Source: an uncultured virus (IMG/VR IMGVR_UViG_3300011865_000032) (Duplodnaviria > Heunggongvirae > Uroviricota > Caudoviricetes). From it: a stretch of 20,000 nt of DNA. The notes under the pieces were generated by a model. That model did not search any database. It was not told where the DNA came from and saw nothing but the letters and a program-made list of their open reading frames with translations. Shown piece after piece: positions 4,107 through 19,995 of the stretch. Position 1 is the stretch's first letter. Each line of letters starts with the position of its first letter. The stretch lies in IMG/VR virus record IMGVR_UViG_3300011865_000032. One strand, written 5' to 3'. Position numbers and translations under genes: made by a program.

Positions 4107-5648
4107 TTATTTTTCACGGAAAAATAAATTCCTTTTAAATATAGTATTAGGATGATCGTCGCATAAATCTTCTGATCGTTTAAACCATACTGAAACATGT
4201 TCTTGTTGTTCTTTTCTTAATTTAGGATTATTTATAATGTAAATATTATAATATTGATTTTCTATTATGAGTTTCGCTGTTTTACTTTCACAAATAGATT
4301 CCCAGTCATATAAATCATCTACATTATTTAAATCTTTATAAATGTTTTTTACTCCATGACTTTCTAAATCATATCGTGAGAACCAATTATAATATGGTAA
4401 TTGAATGTATTTTAAAAAAGGTAAATTTTCTAAAATTTTAACACTATTGGGTGCGAAGTCCGGGTGACTATTTAGATATACTAAATCTTTTTCGTATAAT
4501 ATTTTATTTGAATTTATGTCTTTTGATATCCATCCTGATAACATAGAGTTATATTCATACTCATATTTATTTAAATTTCCATATTGATAACTTACTGAAA
4601 CAAAAAACAAATAAGTTAAACATGTTAAAGCACCACTCACTCTTATTATGTTTTTATTTTTTAAAGCATATAAATAAATAAAAGCTACAATCATATTTAC
4701 AACAATAAATACTCTTGGTCTTGCAAAAACTTCATCCAACAGTATAAAAGGACCCCATATAGATAAGAAAATTAATGGTATTGCTAAAACATAGATTAAT
4801 TTATTTGTTATTTTTTTTTCTTTTACTAAACCTATTAAAAAATTATAAATAAAAATAAAACATATTATTCCAAAAAATATCAAAAAAGGAGTAAACCAGA
4901 TACCATATAAAAATTCAGATATATAACTTATAGCTGTTTTCAAATTACTGAACAAATCTTTTATTTCTATTAACTTAGTTCTATTTGTTGATGCATTAGT
5001 TAATCTAAATAATGTAAAATAAATAATTAAAGATGCTAAATATAATAAAATCCCTTTCATTGTTTCTTTAAATTTTGTCTCTTCATTTTTCCATTTCATC
5101 AAAATATTCATAAATACTAATGCTATAAATAATTGAATGGCTGGTTGGAAAAAAGCAATTGCTATTGTTAATATTAATATTGTTGATAAATAATTTTTCC
5201 AGCTACTACATTTTATAATGTAAGCCATTAATACCAAAGCAACTGCTGATGACATAGTTAAACTATCATATTGATACGAAAGATTCTGAAGAAAAAGAGG
5301 AAATAAAATTAAAAAGCTTAGTGCTATATGATTAAATATGTTTTTTTCTTTTATTAAATGTTTCGTGAATAAATATAAACCTGAGCTTAATATAAAAAGA
5401 CTTAACAAAAATGTTAGTGGAGCTATATTTGTTAAACCACCCATATTAAATGATAATATGTGCATTAATGTATTAGCAGAACCTCGACCTAATGTTTCCC
5501 ATGCATTACCTTTTAATAATCTCACATAATCATCTCTGAAAGGTAAATTATTATTTATTAGGGGATAAATAAAAATGCCCAATAATAAAAAGAAAGCAAA
5601 GAAGCTCTCTTTTCCTGATAAATCTTTATTTAACCATTGCTTGATCAT
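4107..5648 (-). CDS. GtrII-family (Glucos_trans_II-like, GT-C fold) polytopic membrane glucosyltransferase
   Basis: FRDDYVR...W...GR, PLFLQNLSYQYDSLTM and FFQ motifs typical of serotype-converting GtrII proteins; many TM helices plus a C-terminal soluble domain. Start placed at MIKQWL (5648); the ORF track starts at 5711. Confidence 0.75.
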   Translation of the reverse strand: MIKQWLNKDLSGKESFFAFFLLLGIFIYPLINNNLPFRDDYVRLLKGNAWETLGRGSANTLMHILSFNMGGLTNIAPLTFLLSLFILSSGLYLFTKHLIKEKNIFNHIALSFLILFPLFLQNLSYQYDSLTMSSAVALVLMAYIIKCSSWKNYLSTILILTIAIAFFQPAIQLFIALVFMNILMKWKNEETKFKETMKGILLYLASLIIYFTLFRLTNASTNRTKLIEIKDLFSNLKTAISYISEFLYGIWFTPFLIFFGIICFIFIYNFLIGLVKEKKITNKLIYVLAIPLIFLSIWGPFILLDEVFARPRVFIVVNMIVAFIYLYALKNKNIIRVSGALTCLTYLFFVSVSYQYGNLNKYEYEYNSMLSGWISKDINSNKILYEKDLVYLNSHPDFAPNSVKILENLPFLKYIQLPYYNWFSRYDLESHGVKNIYKDLNNVDDLYDWESICESKTAKLIIENQYYNIYIINNPKLRKEQQEHVSVWFKRSEDLCDDHPNTIFKRNLFFREK

Positions 5649-5751
5649 ATTTATATATTTCCAGAAATTAGTTTCCAAAAACATAGTGAAATATTTTATA
5701 ACGATAGTCAATAAAGTAAAAAATTTTATTTAAAGTAAATTAATCATCTGA

Positions 5752-10206: not shown

Positions 10207-10437
10207 TTAGTCAGCTTCATCTGCTTTTTGGAATCCGTCCCATGCACTTGGAGTTCTTTCCTGTTTAACTTCTGTTTTTACTGTTGGTGAAGATTTTTGA
10301 TCAACAAATTCTTGATACGATCTTGTTGACTGAACATTTTCATCACCATTACCACCTTCACTATTAGCAGCATGAGCTATTCCACCTAATGATAAACTTA
10401 AAGCTACTGCGGTTGCCATTAATGTTATTTTTTTCAT
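10207..10437 (-). CDS. Small secreted protein (Sec signal peptide, AHA cleavage site)
   Basis: MKK + hydrophobic core + AHA; AAGGAG RBS; paralog of 10486..10632. Confidence 0.8.
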   Translation of the reverse strand: MKKITLMATAVALSLSLGGIAHAANSEGGNGDENVQSTRSYQEFVDQKSSPTVKTEVKQERTPSAWDGFQKADEAD

Positions 10438-10485: not shown

Positions 10486-10632
10486 TTATTTATTATTTAT
10501 AAAATCCTGATATGTCTTAGATTTCATAACATTATCTTGACCATTTCCACCACCGTGAGAATCGGAAGCATTAGCCATACTCATTGATAAACCAAATACC
10601 ATTACAGATAAAATCATTGCTATTTTTTTCAT
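10486..10632 (-). CDS. 48-aa secreted peptide precursor, missed by the ORF track (MKKIAMILSVMVFGLSMSMANASDSHGGGNGQDNVMKSKTYQDFINNK)
   Basis: Translated by hand. AAAGGAG RBS, signal peptide ending ANA, and a GGNG-x-x-NV-x-x-x-x-[ST]-YQ-[DE]-F motif shared with the downstream gene. Confidence 0.8.
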   Translation of the reverse strand: MKKIAMILSVMVFGLSMSMANASDSHGGGNGQDNVMKSKTYQDFINNK

Positions 10633-11049: not shown

Positions 11050-11196
11050 ATGCAAAGCTCCGCTAGTGGTAAAGTTGAAAAATTCAGTTCTTCTAAAAAG
11101 CAGTCTCGTATGGCTGGGGGTATGAAGGACGATTCACGTAAACGCAATAAAACCACACGTGGTAAAGATCGATACGATTTTACTGACGAGCAATAA
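11050..11196 (+). CDS. 48-aa basic protein, T7 gp1.1-like, missed by the ORF track (MQSSASGKVEKFSSSKKQSRMAGGMKDDSRKRNKTTRGKDRYDFTDEQ)
   Basis: Translated by hand. AAGGTGA RBS, own promoter and terminator, and a close paralog at 11361..11504. Confidence 0.85.
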   Translation: MQSSASGKVEKFSSSKKQSRMAGGMKDDSRKRNKTTRGKDRYDFTDEQ

Positions 11197-11360: not shown

Positions 11361-11504
11361 ATGCAACATTCTTCTTCAGCTAAAGTTGTTAAATTTTCTT
11401 CTTCTAAAAAATCTTCTCGTATGGAAGGAAACATGAAAGAAGATAGTCGAAAACGTAATAAAGTTTCTCGTGGAAAGAATCGTTATTTTGAAGATCAAGA
11501 ATAA
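11361..11504 (+). CDS. 47-aa basic protein, paralog of 11050..11196, missed by the ORF track (MQHSSSAKVVKFSSSKKSSRMEGNMKEDSRKRNKVSRGKNRYFEDQE)
   Basis: Translated by hand. TAAGG RBS. Protein similarity is kept while many synonymous sites differ, which supports coding status. Confidence 0.85.
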   Translation: MQHSSSAKVVKFSSSKKSSRMEGNMKEDSRKRNKVSRGKNRYFEDQE

Positions 11505-12733: not shown

Positions 12734-13438
12734 TTATACTTTACGTTTTTTAAATGAATAATTATCAAAACCTTTACTATTTCTTTTATCAATATCTGAA
12801 ATTTCAATAATTTCTTTTTGCTCGATACCAAGTACTCCACCAATATACATTTCAATTTCTTGATATACTATGGAAGCTTCCATTTTAAATGATTTTGTTA
12901 AATCTTTTAATACAGGGTAAAGCATTAAACCATTATCTACTGTTTTAAAATATAAAGCTCCTGCTTGACGGAATACATCAGGATCTATTTCTTTATCTAC
13001 ACAATTTTTTAAAATATCTTCCCATTCTTTAATTTTTCTTTTTGAAGCACCAGCATAGCCATAACTTAAATGTCTATTTTCTATTTCAGTTTTAAGTTCA
13101 TCAAAATTGCTATAATAGGTTTCATTTGAACGTACAGTTACTCTTTTTCTTTTACCATATTGTTCTTCTGTTATTATGTCTTTAGATTCATAAATAACAA
13201 ATAATGGATATACTTTTCCACAAAAATATAAAAATTCTATTGCTGCGGAACAATCATGATCATCTGAATAATTTCTTCTTTTATAACGGCTTGTTGCAAG
13301 ACTAATCATTTTATAGGGAAGCCCATTTTTTATTTCTTTATAATCTATAATGTTAGTCTCACGTTTTAACATAATAGTATTATCATAAAAAATAGCGGCA
13401 GAATCGTAATAATCATGAAATTTTGAAATTATTTTCAT
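12734..13438 (-). CDS. Conserved phage-type hypothetical protein
   Basis: MKIISKFHDYYD...FCGKVYP...YQEIEMY...GFD..SFKK resembles a hypothetical family I recall from phages; AGGAG RBS. Confidence 0.8.
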   Translation of the reverse strand: MKIISKFHDYYDSAAIFYDNTIMLKRETNIIDYKEIKNGLPYKMISLATSRYKRRNYSDDHDCSAAIEFLYFCGKVYPLFVIYESKDIITEEQYGKRKRVTVRSNETYYSNFDELKTEIENRHLSYGYAGASKRKIKEWEDILKNCVDKEIDPDVFRQAGALYFKTVDNGLMLYPVLKDLTKSFKMEASIVYQEIEMYIGGVLGIEQKEIIEISDIDKRNSKGFDNYSFKKRKV

Positions 13439-13630: not shown

Positions 13631-14329
13631 TTAAATTTTGTTTCTTTGAATTACTTTATTTTCTTCCATATTTGAATTTGAAGATATTCTATTTTTTAAT
13701 TTAGTCATTAAATTTTCTTTTTCTGGTATCTTCATTTCAACATAACTTTTGGTTTCATCTTCCAGCATTTGAGTTTTAGGATCATTTACTATTTCAATAA
13801 ATTTATACATAGCTTTTAATGCTTTATGTGCTTTTTCAGATACCAAATCGTCATTTTTTTCATTTCTTTCCATTTTACCATTATTCCATAATTTTCTAAC
13901 TTCAGTATAATTATTTATAGCTTGATTAACATCTGTTATATTTTTTGAAGTTAATAAAGCCTTACCCTTAGCTTCATTACTCTTTTCTTTATAAAAATCA
14001 CCTGCATTATAATCATGAGAAAATACACTTTTTAAAACGACACCAACAGATACTAAAGCAAGTGTCATACCTAGTGCTTTTAAACTACTAATGTCAGTAT
14101 TATTTGATAATGTTTGGAACAAAAGAAAAGATCCCAAACCTCCTAAACTATTAACAAAAGTTTCTTTTCTTTCTGCCATCACAATATTTTTTCTTTTATC
14201 TTCTAATATTTGAGCAGAATTATTATAGAAAGATTCTCTATTTTCCTCTTGTTTTAATGATTCTTTAAACTTTTTTTCAAATTCTAACCCACCTAATAGA
14301 GTAGTAAACCGTCCTTCTTTATTTTTCAT
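13631..14329 (-). CDS. Membrane protein with a hydrophobic hairpin and a basic C-terminal tail (EENKVIQRNKI)
   Basis: AGGAGG RBS before MKNKEG at 14329 (the ORF track starts at 14368); two hydrophobic segments. Confidence 0.75.
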   Translation of the reverse strand: MKNKEGRFTTLLGGLEFEKKFKESLKQEENRESFYNNSAQILEDKRKNIVMAERKETFVNSLGGLGSFLLFQTLSNNTDISSLKALGMTLALVSVGVVLKSVFSHDYNAGDFYKEKSNEAKGKALLTSKNITDVNQAINNYTEVRKLWNNGKMERNEKNDDLVSEKAHKALKAMYKFIEIVNDPKTQMLEDETKSYVEMKIPEKENLMTKLKNRISSNSNMEENKVIQRNKI

Positions 14330-14563
14330 GAAAACCTCCTTAATATTTCGTCCTTTTAAAAAAATCATTTTACGTTTTACCGATACTTAATATTATTATT
14401 GTAATCAATTTTAGAATTTTATCAAGATTTTACTTCTTTTTTGCATAAAATAATTTATAAATAATTATCTACACATAATGATATTTAAAAATTATAAACT
14501 TGATTTTTATCACATTTATTACATAATAATAATGTAATTAACAATTTTTTATAGGATATTCCG

Positions 14564-16534
14564 ATGTTTCATAACTTTATAATAACAAGGAGAGCTAAAA
14601 AATATAAAAACAAAAATAATGGTTTTTCATTAATGGAAATGATATTAACCATTTCTATTGTTTTAATATTAATGACAGCAGTCTTTTTCACATATCAAAT
14701 AGTTTCAGAAAGAAATAAAATTCAAAAAGCAACTAATGAATTAGCTTTAATAAAGAATGGTATCGATGAGTTAACAGAAAATCATGTTGTAGCAGTGGAT
14801 AATAACATCCTACTTAATTCCAGAAATATACCTAAAAATATGATCAATGGGAGTGACATTTTACATCCATGGAAAGGGAAAGTTATTATTTCAGCCTACC
14901 CAGGAGATAACCGTTTTTATAATATTGCTTATTCTAATTTATCAACTTCTGCATGTATTAATATAGTTAGTAATACAAAAGGCATGTTTAATACTATAAA
15001 AAATTCTTTTTCCGAATTAAATTCTGATAATATTAGTGACATTTCTAATTTTTGTTCTCAATTAAAGACTAATGATCAACTCATTTTTTCTAATTATAGA
15101 ACATTAGTTGCTGCTGGAGGCAACAATAATAATAGTTCAGCATCAACAAGCTCTAGTTTATCTGCTTCGACTTCTGCAAGTATTAGTTCTTCTTTAAGTG
15201 CAAGTAATTCAGCTTCTTTAAGTGCCAGTATGTCTAATAGTGTTAGTGCTTCAAATAGTGCGAGTTTATCAGCGTCCAATTCTGCGTCATTAAGTGCTTC
15301 GACTTCTGCAAGTCTTAGTAGTTCTTTATCCGCTTCTACTAGTTTAAGTAATTCTATGAGTCTTTCAGCTTCAGCGAGCAGGAGTACATCTACAAGCATT
15401 AGCACTTCTACCATTATAAGCACATCAGCGAGTATTAGTAGATCTACAAGCCTTAGTGCCAGCACTTCAACAAGTCTTTCAGCTTCAAGATCTGCTTCAA
15501 CGAGTCTTAGCACATCCGCAAGTCTTAGCACTTCAAATAGTATTAGTCGATCAGCAAGTTTAAGTGCCAGCACTTCGACAAGTCTTTCAGCTTCAAGATC
15601 TGCTTCCATTAGTTTAAGTACTTCTTCTTCTTTAAGTGCATCAACTTCTGCAAGTCTTAGCACTTCAATTTCCGCAAGTAATGTCGCTTCAATTTCCGCA
15701 AGTGCAAGTCGCAGTGCTTCTTTATCTACTTCAACAAGTTTAAGTAATTCAGCAAGCATTAGTGCTTCTACTTCTACTTCATTAAGTGCTTCAAGATCTA
15801 CATCAGCGGCAATAAGTACTTCAAATAGTTTAAGTGCCAGCACATCTACAAGCTTATCAGCCTCAAGAGTAGCTTCTGCAAGTTTATCAACATCAGCAAG
15901 CTTAAGTGCTTCTACAAGTGTAAGTAGATCAGCGAGTTTGAGTGCCAGCACATCTACAAGCTTATCAGCATCAAGATCTGCTTCTACTAGTCTAGCTACA
16001 TCAGCCAGTCTTAGTGCTTCTACAAGTGTAAGTAGATCAGCGAGTTTGAGTGCCAGCACTTCTGCAAGTTTATCAGCTTCAAGAGTAGCTTCTGCAAGTT
16101 TATCAACATCAGCAAGCTTAAGTGCTTCAAGATCTGTATCTACAAGTCTTAGTGTAAGTCGTTCAGTTAGCACTTCTACTTCTGTTTCAGCTTCTGTTGC
16201 TAAAGATGCCGCACGAGTTGCAACTATCAAGAAAAATATGACATACAGAACCGCAGTAGGTAATGGACCAGGAGGTAGACCTGGTGGAACAAATATTTTC
16301 TTAGAATTTAGAGGAAAAGGTCAAATGTATTTTGTGGCAAGTGGTATTAACTATTCAGGAAGCCCAGGAGTTTATGTTAATAATCAAAATGGAGCGAGAA
16401 CTAATGTTTCTATTTCTGCACCCAATTTACAAACAGCTATAAACAATGCTAAAACAATGGCACAACTTCAACAAGTTTTTAATGCGAATGGTTTATCAGT
16501 ATTATATAATTTCCTTTCTGGGGCTTATCCATAA
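14564..16534 (+). CDS. Type IVb (PilS-like) prepilin fused to a serine-rich repeat stalk and a ~110-aa C-terminal domain
   Basis: Basic 20-aa leader, G|FSLME class III cleavage motif with Glu+5, hydrophobic helix, HPWKGKV motif and the paired Cys (SAC...NFC) of R64 PilS-like pilins; then S-X dipeptide repeats. AGGA RBS. Confidence 0.85.
15134..16197 (+). repeat. Serine-rich (S-X)n coding repeat with a 108-nt (36-aa) higher-order unit near its 3' end
   Basis: TCTACAAGTGTAAGTAGATCAGCGAGTTTGAGTGCCAGCAC occurs at 15911 and 16019 (108 nt apart); AAGAGTAGCTTCTGCAAGTTTATCAACATCAGCAAGCTTAAGTGCTTC occurs at 15865 and 16081 (216 nt apart). Confidence 0.9.
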
Positions 16535-16552: not shown

Positions 16553-16578
16553 AAAATGACACCATATGGTGTCATTTT
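16553..16578. terminator. Bidirectional intrinsic terminator
   Basis: AAAATGACACC-ATAT-GGTGTCATTTT between convergent genes. Confidence 0.75.
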
Positions 16579-16580
16579 CT

Positions 16581-17174
16581 TTATTTCCAACTTTCTATAT
16601 TTTTATTTCTATCTTGTATTAACTCTTCTTTTTGTTTTTTATTTTGTATTATTTCTGCTTCTCTAATATTAATTACTTTACACATTCTTTCACCTAATTG
16701 ATTAATATATTTTAAATACATATCTTTGTTCATAGTTAAAGATTTATCAGGAGTAACTAAAATTACCTTATTGGACCTAAATGATAATTTACCTACTATA
16801 TCAGATCTATCTATATAATTAGGTAAGGGTTCGTTTCCTGAAAATTCCCAGTCCCACATAAAATCAGAATCTGTTAATTTTACTTTAACATTTAATCTAT
16901 CTACTTGTTTTAATGAATTTTTATAATTAACAAACATCTCTAAATACATTCCAGAATAAGCTAAATTAATCTTCCTTACTCTATAATTATTTAAACATTG
17001 TAATGGTTTAACTAAATCTTTATTAATTTCTACTTTTGTACAACTAATACCACAAATATTATGAAATGAGGTTTTTTCTACATCGCTAATTTTATTTATA
17101 AATGTAAAAACAATAGCCACTATTCCAATAACAATAAAAAAAATTATTACAGGATTAATTTCTTTTTTCTTCAT
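16581..17174 (-). CDS. Single-pass membrane-anchored protein, paralog of 17181..17807
   Basis: N-terminal TM followed by DVEKTSFxNxCGISCxKVEINxxLVxPLQCLNN, shared with its neighbour. Confidence 0.8.
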   Translation of the reverse strand: MKKKEINPVIIFFIVIGIVAIVFTFINKISDVEKTSFHNICGISCTKVEINKDLVKPLQCLNNYRVRKINLAYSGMYLEMFVNYKNSLKQVDRLNVKVKLTDSDFMWDWEFSGNEPLPNYIDRSDIVGKLSFRSNKVILVTPDKSLTMNKDMYLKYINQLGERMCKVINIREAEIIQNKKQKEELIQDRNKNIESWK

Positions 17175-17180
17175 ATTTAT

Positions 17181-17807
17181 TTATTCCCAACGTTTTGAAT
17201 TTTCTTTTTCGTTCATTTTTTCTTGTTTTGCCTTTTCTTGTTTCATTTTTTTATCATAAACTATACTATAATCTTCACTTTTCATACTTTCACACATTTT
17301 TGGACCCAACTTATTTAAATAACTTAAATAATCTTCTCTGTTCATCTTTAAAGATTCTTTTGGTGTAATTAAATAAGTATATCCTGTTTTATTATCAAAT
17401 GATATTTTACCAATCATATCAGAATAAGAGTTATCAAATATTGAATAATTATCTTCATCTTCCCATATAAAATTACCTTTTACTGTTGTTGTTGTTTTGA
17501 GTCTTACTTCTTTATTTTCGATATTTTTATAATTTATGAACATATAAAGAGTATCAGGATATCTTCTATTGTAACCTAAATTGATTTTACTTACTTTATC
17601 ATTATTTAAACATTGCAATGGTTCAACTAATTTATTATTAATTTCTACTTTTTCACATGAAATACCACATAAATTATAAAAAGATGTTTTTTCTACATCT
17701 CTAAATAAAGAATTACATAAAATATATCCTAATATTAGGGATATCATAATAACAAGAAGAAATTTAAAACAATTGTCATCAATATCTTTATTATGTTTTT
17801 TATTCAT
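17181..17807 (-). CDS. Single-pass membrane-anchored protein, paralog of 16581..17174
   Basis: Same Cys-containing motif, plus shared GKxSF, LxTPxxSLxMN and C-terminal W. Confidence 0.8.
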   Translation of the reverse strand: MNKKHNKDIDDNCFKFLLVIMISLILGYILCNSLFRDVEKTSFYNLCGISCEKVEINNKLVEPLQCLNNDKVSKINLGYNRRYPDTLYMFINYKNIENKEVRLKTTTTVKGNFIWEDEDNYSIFDNSYSDMIGKISFDNKTGYTYLITPKESLKMNREDYLSYLNKLGPKMCESMKSEDYSIVYDKKMKQEKAKQEKMNEKENSKRWE

Positions 17808-19694: not shown

Positions 19695-19771
19695 TGGTGG
19701 CCCCTGCTGGACTTGAACCAGCGACCAATCGATTATGAGTCGAGTGCTCTGACCAACTGAGCTAAGGGGCC
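19695..19771 (-). tRNA. tRNA-Ile2 (CAU anticodon, lysidine-modified, reads AUA)
   Basis: GGCCCCTTAGCTCAGTTGGTCAGAGCACTCGACTCATAATCGATTGGTCGCTGGTTCAAGTCCAGCAGGGGCCACCA: cloverleaf with encoded CCA; acceptor and T arms match E. coli ileX as I recall them. Confidence 0.9.
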
Positions 19772-19908: not shown

Positions 19909-19995
19909 TGGTGCCTCGAATCGGACTCGAACCGATACAGCTTTAAAGCCGAGGGATTTTAAATCCCTTGTGTCTACCAATTTCACCATCGAGGC
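19909..19995 (-). tRNA. tRNA-Leu (UAA anticodon), leuZ-like
   Basis: GCCTCGATGGTGAAATTGGTAGACACAAGGGATTTAAAATCCCTCGGCTTTAAAGCTGTATCGGTTCGAGTCCGATTCGAGGCACCA: long variable arm, encoded CCA. Confidence 0.95.

Follow-up and report, generated by a model that had tools for sequence, protein, structure and literature searches.

The PilV shufflon adhesins carry variable C-terminal recognition parts on a constant N-terminal part, and the serine-rich repeat (SRR) adhesins of Firmicutes possess a long aSec-type signal, an SRR1-binding region-SRR2 layout and linked secA2/secY2/asp/gtfA/gtfB genes. The GtrC enzymes act in O-antigen modification and are classic phage surface-conversion genes, TfpW is a pilin-modifying enzyme, and phage proteins which switch off pili are known as well. 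Modular pilins (PilB/PilC of S. sanguinis, CofB of enterotoxigenic Escherichia coli (ETEC), TcpB of V. cholerae) have been catalogued by Raynaud et al. 2021 (PMC8179133); they act as adhesins, and in CofB the pilin module is joined to the distal domains by a flexible linker. Pilus subunits are also encoded by phages: P-FimU of F10-like Pseudomonas prophages and P-PilA of Xylella prophages and virulent phages are described in PMC12952977 as incorporated by the host and have been proposed to serve phage-versus-phage competition. Pilin glycosylation is reported in 10.1101/150227 to be a barrier to pilus-specific phages. The gene analysed in this work (positions 14564 to 16534, plus strand) lies in a 20,000-nucleotide stretch of an uncultured virus of the Caudoviricetes (IMG/VR IMGVR_UViG_3300011865_000032), which is called the window in what follows, and its 656-amino-acid product unites a pilin module, a serine-rich tether and a head of unmatched fold, which is a rare design. 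Modular pilins and phage-encoded pilus subunits were already known, two recent concepts which are joined in this protein family; the pilin module-Ser-X tether-head design appears to be new.

The open reading frame (ORF) starts with ATG and runs over exactly the coordinates where a model's earlier reading of the letters alone (the sequence-only reading) had placed a stand-alone gene for a PilS-like prepilin which continues into a Ser-X tract and ends with a distal domain. This anatomy was borne out by the ORF and domain analysis: the gene consists of a prepilin leader with a PilS-type pilin module, a Ser-X tract and a C-terminal head of about 107 amino acids (aa), and both of its neighbours (13631-14368 and 16581-17174) lie on the opposite strand. 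Its parts are the following.

14564..16534, plus strand: the whole gene, encoding the 656-aa modular prepilin, with the stop codon TAA at 16532-16534 and a second TAA directly after it
14553..14556, plus strand: Shine-Dalgarno-like AGGA, 7 nucleotides (nt) before the ATG, read from the sequence
14564..14623, plus strand: class III leader peptide, aa 1-20, basic, with Gly20 as last residue (N_methyl and TIGR02532 above cut-offs)
14624..15121, plus strand: pilin module of the mature protein (PilS-type, type IVb), aa 21-186; its alpha1-N helix is hydrophobic, and it holds the conserved pair C131/C164
15122..16210, plus strand: Ser-X dipeptide tract, aa 187-549 (strict core aa 190-546), predicted to be disordered
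15827..16128, plus strand: 108-nt (36-aa) higher-order repeat within the Ser-X tract, 2.8 copies with 85% matches (Tandem Repeats Finder)
16211..16531, plus strand: C-terminal head domain, aa 550-656, with a predicted alpha/beta fold (AlphaFold 2, AF2)

The N-terminus is a class III signal peptide of the type IV pilin kind, with a basic leader, Gly at its end and Glu at +5. The G|FSLME motif occupies aa 20-25 and HPWKG aa 101-105, and prepilin peptidase is predicted to cut at G20|F21. When aa 1-189 were used as query, N_methyl (PF07963) scored 27.1 bits (Pfam cut-off 21.2), TIGR02532 24 bits (cut-off 16.3) and PilS (PF08805) 31.4 bits (cut-off 22), the latter matching aa 53-165; in the Pfam scan of the whole 656-aa protein only N_methyl is reported, PilS being below the reporting threshold (E <= 1) there. 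The residues G, F, S, L, M and E of the cleavage motif are invariant in all six aligned homologues, as are C131 and C164, the only cysteines in the protein. A tblastn search against plasmids gave 83 records, 46 of them with at least 80% query coverage, at about 31% identity and with a best E of 3e-23; the matches are annotated as 'type 4 pilus major pilin' and sit on roughly 40-kb enterobacterial plasmids, in one of which the PilS locus also holds a DotA/TraY gene. The PF08805 score, the homology to annotated PilS and the Cys pair, for which a disulphide is predicted, point to a PilS-type pilin.

In the poor AlphaFold model of the whole protein (mean predicted local distance difference test score, pLDDT, 37) the pilin part is a long N-terminal helix followed by a sheet, and Foldseek with the whole model returned type IVb pilins (TcpA, S. 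Typhi PilS 3fhu, CofA) in 14 of the first 15 rows. The matches of a PDB sequence profile search with the pilin were confined to the N-terminal helix, and so were those of the NCBIfam GspG/GspH and ComG pseudopilin models, which were weak and sub-threshold. The pilin fold that the sequence-only reading had claimed for the N-domain is supported by Pfam, through the two hidden Markov models (N_methyl and PilS) that had been suggested as a check, by the plasmid pilins and, weakly, by Foldseek.

Ser-X alternation is strict over aa 190-546 (357 aa) and its register is never lastingly shifted: Ser occupies 171 of the 179 positions (96%) of one phase and 5 of the 178 positions of the other. By a sliding-window definition the tract extends over aa 187-549, that is, 363 aa. 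The X residues are Ala (31%), Thr (22%), Leu (19%) and Arg (8%), with Ile, Asn and Val also present, and the strict core holds 14 Arg and not a single acidic residue. The tract is predicted to be disordered, pLDDT being about 20 across aa 178-544. The Ser codons are mixed (AGT 65, TCA 42, TCT 40, AGC 20, TCC 6, TCG 3); since they are mixed and the higher-order repeat is found only in the 3' part, the DNA is not a simple satellite which is hard to assemble. An antisense ORF (15094..16230, minus strand, 378 aa) was considered as a gene and rejected as a shadow of the repeat, because it lies wholly inside the repeat and only the plus strand keeps the conserved domains flanking the repeat in frame.

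The tract had been likened to the repeats of the Gram-positive SRR adhesins (Fap1, GspB, SraP, PsrP), and a part of this likeness stands. A long Ser-X tract is present in both, as a presumed glycosylated stalk which projects a binding region. In contrast to the SRR adhesins, the protein has a prepilin leader instead of an aSec-type signal, a single repeat, a C-terminal head and basic, not acidic, X residues. The motif LP.[TSA]G occurs nowhere in the 656 aa, and neither aSec (SecA2/Y2, Asp) nor GtfA/B families could be detected in the window. The NCBIfam serine-rich/MSCRAMM models (ser_rich, ClfA, Sdr) scored 16-52 bits against cut-offs of 650-2500, and these matches are compositional only. The likeness to the Firmicute adhesins is best described as convergence, not membership, with only the dipeptide repeat in common.

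The C-terminal 107 or so aa are non-repetitive and contain 13% Asn, 13% Gly and 11% Ala. Structure prediction of aa 550-656 (AF2 with a 4-sequence alignment) gave a pLDDT of 77.8 and a predicted template modelling score (pTM) of 0.71, and the predicted order of the fold is one helix, a four-stranded sheet and three helices. No match of the head family was found in Pfam, NCBIfam, PHROGs or PADLOC, and none among the PDB sequences at E <= 10. Foldseek gave no match at E <= 0.001 in the PDB (best 0.45) or in BFVD (best 0.048), VIA-align against 48,161 chains gave none with Z >= 5 (best Z 4.1, root mean square deviation 3.8, 71 residues aligned), and the ESM Atlas gave no usable match. The structure search proposed by the sequence-only reading for the last 110 or so aa has thus yielded a confident fold with no match to a known one, and the head, for which no relative could be detected by sequence or by structure, may represent a novel fold for binding. 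Exhaustive phmmer searching with the head found three proteins: a fragment with the very sequence of the protein analysed here, then P0007, and lastly the doubtful P0008, which matched only over aa 23-57 with an E of 9.7e-4, possibly by chance. P0008 itself is a 156-aa metagenomic protein with two copies of a GP..FFGS.AVYLWWRG.GAMWF-like motif, which resembles the first strands of the head. Head homologues are present in P0001-3, P0007 and P0009-11.

The protein resembles the modular pilins in having an N-terminal pilin module and an extra C-terminal module for display on the filament (PMC8179133); the head is a non-pilus module separate from the pilin module. Unlike in those proteins, a Ser-X tract of 357-363 aa takes the place of the short loop as linker, no known domain is matched by the head, and the module is PilS major-pilin-like, keeps Glu+5 and is encoded on a phage-like replicon without pilus machinery. 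As its head bears no InterPro-type signature, the protein would not appear in the catalogue of PMC8179133.

At least four further lineages from metagenomes show the three-part layout; tract lengths range from 97 to 363 aa, and the window's tract is the longest. P0001-3 (three matches among 342 candidates) are 502-507 aa long, have pilin modules 63-64% identical and carry a Pro/Thr linker before the repeat. P0004 and P0005 (two matches among 126 candidates) both end inside the repeat, and P0007 is a repeat and head fragment, 45% identical, without pilin module. P0009-11 were found by the head profile (six matches among 7997 candidates). The tracts of the family contain 0-1 acidic and 3-14 basic residues; P0005 is the exception, with 2 basic residues in a tract of fragment length (97 aa). 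A single Pro-Thr unit distinguishes P0001 from P0002, and P0009, P0010 and P0011 have near-identical flanks and lengths of 467, 459 and 493 aa; since the flanks are near-identical and the lengths differ, the low-complexity parts change length quickly. One member of the P0003 cluster sits on a contig of 452,473 bp.

The genomes searched, one for each of 185,579 species, yielded no member; the 12 loci returned from them match the query in short N-terminal stretches only (no more than residues 16-127, at 30% identity), and the same holds for the 24 loci from the JGI metagenome contigs, which likewise yielded no member. Among the 50,697 deposited phage records no PilS-like pilin turned up, and neither the window's pilin nor alignment A2 retrieved a relative when IMG/VR was scanned with them. 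Judged by sequence comparison, the pilin-repeat-head fusion is real, old and conserved as a unit in several lineages. Among the findings that would speak against it the sequence-only reading had named an assembly artefact, which does not fit a layout recurring in independent contigs, and many already characterised pilin-SRR homologues, of which none was met in the searches made. Nor did full-text searches return any title or abstract that describes such a fusion or pilin cluster, though relatives may be listed in Dataset S1 of PMC8179133 or in Table S3 of PMC12952977.

By way of the P0011 lineage a related IMG/VR record was reached (G001; 341,648 bp, CheckV completeness 97%, class 'provirus'). 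Eight ORFs of the window have homologues in it with 25-64% identity, that is, 8 of the 23 ORFs treated as genes, or 8 of the 33 that were searched when all ORFs from 60 aa upwards are counted; two other window proteins, searched singly, gave no match in G001. The following features of the window tie it to this record, the first of them being one of the eight ORFs.

12734..13438, minus strand: gene of the phrog_4243 family (PHROG), 53% identical to a G001 gene and a marker linking the window to jumbo-phage-like records
19695..19771 and 19909..19995, minus strand: tRNA-Met (CAT) and tRNA-Leu (TAA), a unit which is repeated in G001, often with tRNA-Arg (TCT)

The best match of the phrog_4243 gene is to jumbo phages (XaC1, 349 kb, 34% identity), and G001 holds nine copies of the tRNA-Met, with 89-95% identity to that of the window. 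That record has 555 short ORFs (median 139 aa), nearly all on one strand, and 34 tRNAs, including 9 tRNA-Met, in repeated Met/Leu(TAA)/Arg(TCT) units. Its phage-type genes include HNH endonucleases, a T4-type RNA ligase, a tail-collar fibre and many phage-only PHROG families; PHROG matches were obtained for 15 of the 41 ORFs of at least 330 aa (E <= 1e-5) and for 24 of the 97 ORFs of 200-329 aa (E <= 1e-15). On the other side, Pfam named only 11 of the 39 ORFs scanned, and known phages are only 31-43% identical in the two G001 proteins compared. G001 is with good confidence a phage; it may also be the accessory arm of a larger genome, or a phage-like element. It further holds MutS, a gene with an MCP-signalling domain, a TROVE/Ro-like gene and two near-identical HNH endonucleases. 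Recoding of TAG, prompted by two CTA-anticodon tRNAs (G001 90374-90447 and 174814-174888), was unsupported: read-through raises the stop-to-stop ORFs of at least 330 aa in G001 only from 49 to 50, and in the window it slightly lengthens two ORFs (79-612 and 1318-1659) and leaves the pilin gene unchanged.

An 11-kb cluster of G001 contains, in this order, three tandem pilin-repeat genes, two Trypsin_2 genes, two GtrII-family GT-C genes and two short PilS pilins. The three pilin-repeat proteins (455, 460 and 552 aa) have the pilin module and the repeat in common and their heads are mutually unrelated, the profile of the window-type head reaching hhalign probabilities of only 0.5% and 0.2% with the other two. 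Unrelated heads on the same scaffold argue for a recognition role of the head. The variable ends on a constant scaffold recall PilV, and G001 also has a Shufflon_N protein; in contrast to the shufflon, variation would come here from separate tandem genes with unrelated heads and not from DNA inversion. The tandem Trypsin_2 genes encode lipoprotein-like proteases (L039 8516-9136 and 9192-9758, both plus strand) and stand between GtrC-like genes and repeat pilins; they may process or trim pilins. Large PilV-like prepilins, one of them with Shufflon_N, were seen at L051 18579-19934 (minus strand) and at G001 238576-240243 and 259712-261262.

In a tree of 14 pilin modules the eight repeat-bearing ones together with the plasmid PilS split from five short pilins of G001 with 100/100 support; the tree would also allow the repeat-bearing modules to have arisen once, with weak support (68/61). 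It was built without the near-duplicates P0002, P0004, P0009 and P0010, without P0007, which lacks a pilin module, and without another five ORFs of G001 that are prepilin-like.

Altogether G001 has 9 PilS-domain genes and 13 ORFs with a prepilin motif, which comprise short pilins of the major type, proteins like PilV, and pilins bearing swappable heads on a repeat tether. It gave 0 matches to T2SSE (PF00437), Peptidase_A24 (PF01478), Secretin (PF00263) and T2SSF (PF00482) in searches which read through stops and in which the controls were positive in 14/14, 12/14, 6/14 and 13/14 genomes, respectively. Many pilin genes without a match to motor, secretin or peptidase would indicate dependence on the machinery of the host. 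The phage-encoded pilus subunits of PMC12952977, diverse pilin genes on phages without assembly genes, would be like the present ones in this; they are plain or truncated type IVa minor or major pilins, and neither a repeat tether nor an added head is mentioned for any of them. With the IncI/R64-type and S. Typhi PilS the protein shares the PilS Pfam domain and the identity of about 31% to plasmid major pilins; unlike in the IncI/R64-type pil system, no pil operon or assembly genes were found in the window or in G001, and the mature N-terminus is Phe.

A candidate for an enzyme that would modify the tract is encoded in the window.

4107..5711, minus strand: GtrC-like GT-C membrane glycosyltransferase (Glucos_trans_II), PF14264 with 87.3 bits, phrog_4829 'O-antigen conversion'

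Over its full length, including the C-terminal periplasmic part, this protein is 26% (E 2e-44) and 30% (E 7e-51) identical to the two GtrII proteins of G001. These are the products of the only two PF14264 genes of G001, which sit between the repeat pilins and the short PilS pilins, and a GtrC-like enzyme thus accompanies a repeat pilin in both loci for which the context is available. This co-occurrence is new support for glycosylation of the repeat, and the 4107-5711 product is the putative O-glycosylating enzyme. Such an arrangement is like that of TfpW, TfpO/PilO, PglL and GtrABC, where a polytopic GT-C enzyme acting on the periplasmic face is encoded beside pilin genes; the enzyme here differs from TfpW, TfpO and PglL in being of the GtrC/Glucos_trans_II family. 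GtrA (PF04138) and GT2/GtrB (PF00535) are absent from the window and from G001, thus, unlike in the GtrABC module by which phages alter the O-antigen, the GtrC-like gene stands alone and not in a three-gene set. The enzyme may modify a protein and not O-antigen.

Taken together, we consider it somewhat better than an even chance that the gene, carried by a large replicon which looks like a giant phage, encodes a phage-borne modular type IVb pilin, which is processed and assembled by the host and shows an exchangeable head on a long, probably O-glycosylated tether. The prepilin would be inserted in the inner membrane of the host and cut by the host prepilin peptidase at G20|F21, and the host type IVb pilus machine would polymerise it through its N-terminal helix. 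Since so bulky an appendage has to get through the secretin, the subunit would most likely enter the pilus in small numbers or only at the tip. The Ser-X tract would serve as a long flexible tether holding the head tens of nanometres from the filament, and would probably be O-glycosylated in the periplasm by the GtrC-like GT-C enzyme from a host lipid-linked sugar. With the head as an exchangeable recognition module, the phage would alter what the pili of the host bind and what binds them. The design may thereby let the phage re-equip the pili of its host.

Several observations weigh against this explanation. Among the 22 proteins of the 20-kb window there is no pilus machinery, no prepilin peptidase and no second pilin, and a subunit with an appendage of about 470 aa may be unable to pass the secretin. 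The fold of the pilin module is of low confidence (pLDDT 32-71), and the best Foldseek E for the whole model is 7.7e-3, with no row at 0.001. Phe as mature N-terminus is typical of type IVa and not of type IVb pilins, and counts against a type IVb subunit. The GtrC-like gene of the window lies 8.9 kb upstream of the pilin gene on the opposite strand; GtrC enzymes are known for O-antigen, and the link between GtrC and pilin would follow from two loci, too few for a firm conclusion. The relatives are probably, though not certainly, phages: the encoding by a phage is indicated by the viral class and the phage-like features of G001 and by the eight shared ORFs, but none of the 138 G001 ORFs of at least 200 aa matches a PHROG head/packaging family, only two match families of the 'tail' category, and no capsid or terminase family was found among them.

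A bolder form of the same explanation, which we put forward tentatively and hold to be clearly the less probable, is a 'pilus conversion' by huge phages, in which a wardrobe of pilins (the 13 prepilin-like genes of G001) together with their own GT-C enzymes would rebuild the host pili as phage-specified, glycan-coated filaments. The Ser-X tract would then be an independent, periplasmically glycosylated Gram-negative counterpart of the SRR stalk; if the tract is glycosylated, the Gram-positive stalk would have been reinvented independently in a type IV filament. The family offers a small, defined and expressible test case for whether a pilus machine can handle a subunit with an appendage of about 470 aa, whether GtrC-type enzymes, tied so far to O-antigen, can glycosylate proteins, and whether large phages remodel host pili as they do O-antigen.

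The same assembly steps could serve another purpose, the exclusion of other phages. Phage pilins would replace or coat the host pilus subunits while the pilus goes on working, and the glycan tethers and heads would shield the filament from pilus-specific competitors and from the phage's own progeny. The literature holds precedents for both purposes, adhesion or aggregation and the shielding of pili from phages (PMC8179133, PMC12952977, 10.1101/150227). Prophage FimU-like proteins enter pili and block tip-binding phages and virulent phages carry PilA-like genes (PMC12952977), and pilus-specific phages are countered by pilin glycosylation (10.1101/150227). The 13 pilin-like genes of G001, including the PilV-like Shufflon_N protein and without motor matches, and the diversity of the heads, which fits an arms race, would suit this purpose, as would an enzyme of the classic phage surface-conversion type (phrog_4829). 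Nevertheless, a conserved and well-folded head is unnecessary for mere shielding, there is no sign that the phage or its competitors use pili as receptor, and 0 of the 20 window proteins scanned match a PADLOC defence family. We regard masking as the purpose to be unlikely, though deserving of attention.

That the gene is an ordinary minor pilin or adhesin of a cellular replicon, such as an AT-rich bacterium or a megaplasmid, is likewise unlikely, with about one chance in several. No capsid, portal or terminase family was seen among the 138 ORFs of G001, cell-type genes occur in the window (TatD) and in G001 (MutS, the MCP-signalling-domain gene), IMG/VR labels G001 a 'provirus', and no PilS-like pilin turned up in the deposited phage records. 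Against it, the genomes of the 185,579 species gave no relative, only the short N-terminal matches. Against it stand also the viral class and the 97% completeness of G001, its 34 tRNAs in repeated units, its short ORFs nearly all on one strand, and its HNH homing endonucleases, T4-type RNA ligase, tail-collar fibre and phage-only PHROG families; the window itself has phage-family matches, and its phrog_4243 gene matches jumbo phages best.

It is improbable that the protein is no pilus subunit at all, and that it stays anchored in the inner membrane or forms part of a pseudopilus of the type II secretion system (T2SS) kind, as a periplasmic or surface protein using the pilin helix as anchor or export signal. 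The lack of machinery in cis, in the window as well as in G001, and the weak GspG/GspH and ComG matches would be in line with such a role; the conservation of a whole globular PilS domain with its Cys pair and E+5 would not, and an extended tether of about 360 aa would by far exceed the width of the periplasm.

A poison subunit, the appendage of which cannot pass the secretin so that the host pilus machine is jammed or capped and piliation is abolished, is rated a shade more improbable still. A large C-terminal appendage behind an assembly-competent module with G-1 and E+5 is what such a poison would look like, and phage proteins that switch off pili offer a precedent, but jamming requires neither a conserved folded head nor three tandem heads nor repeats of 97-363 aa, and the accompanying short pilins and the PilV-like gene would be left unexplained.

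The idea of a Gram-positive SRR adhesin, acquired whole or in part by transfer, or of an assembly chimaera, for which the Ser-X composition and the sub-threshold ser_rich, ClfA and Sdr matches might speak, is hardly credible and is refuted as far as sequence can show by the low scores of those matches, the lack of LPxTG, of an aSec-type signal and of Gtf or SecA2/Y2 genes in the window, the mixed Ser codons and the recurrence of the layout in independent contigs.

The rest of the window agrees in part with known families. Its G+C content is 20-39%. Pfam matches (E <= 0.01) were obtained for 7 of the 22 other proteins, five of them above the curated cut-off (Fer2, GtrII, HAD, TatD, lipoprotein signal), and extra ankyrin and HAD-related matches were below it. 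PHROG phage families matched are MazG-like, GtrC-like, ferredoxin, phrog_4243 and others. When the complete window was compared by megablast, nothing but the tRNAs gave matches (146 phage and 36 plasmid records), and no defence family was found by PADLOC in the 20 proteins mentioned above. Promoter-like sites were not above chance (10 found, against 10.0 +/- 2.8 expected from shuffled sequence). Directly downstream of the pilin gene two tandem paralogues (16581-17174 and 17181-17807, both minus strand; 41% identity) encode proteins which are anchored in the membrane by their N-terminus and have the Cys motif CGISC...PLQCLNN conserved, and for which neither a family match nor a G001 homologue was found. 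ORFs are sparse between 10.2 and 11.6 kb, and this gap encodes two pairs of small paralogues, one of proteins with a signal peptide and one of very basic proteins. The coordinates of these minor features are given below.

16553..16578, plus strand: terminator-like hairpin between the convergent genes, with an 11-bp stem and a T-rich tail (1 found, 0.8 +/- 1.0 expected by chance)
10207..10437 and 10486..10632, minus strand: small ORFs of the 10.2-11.6 kb gap
11050..11196 and 11361..11504, plus strand: small ORFs of the same gap

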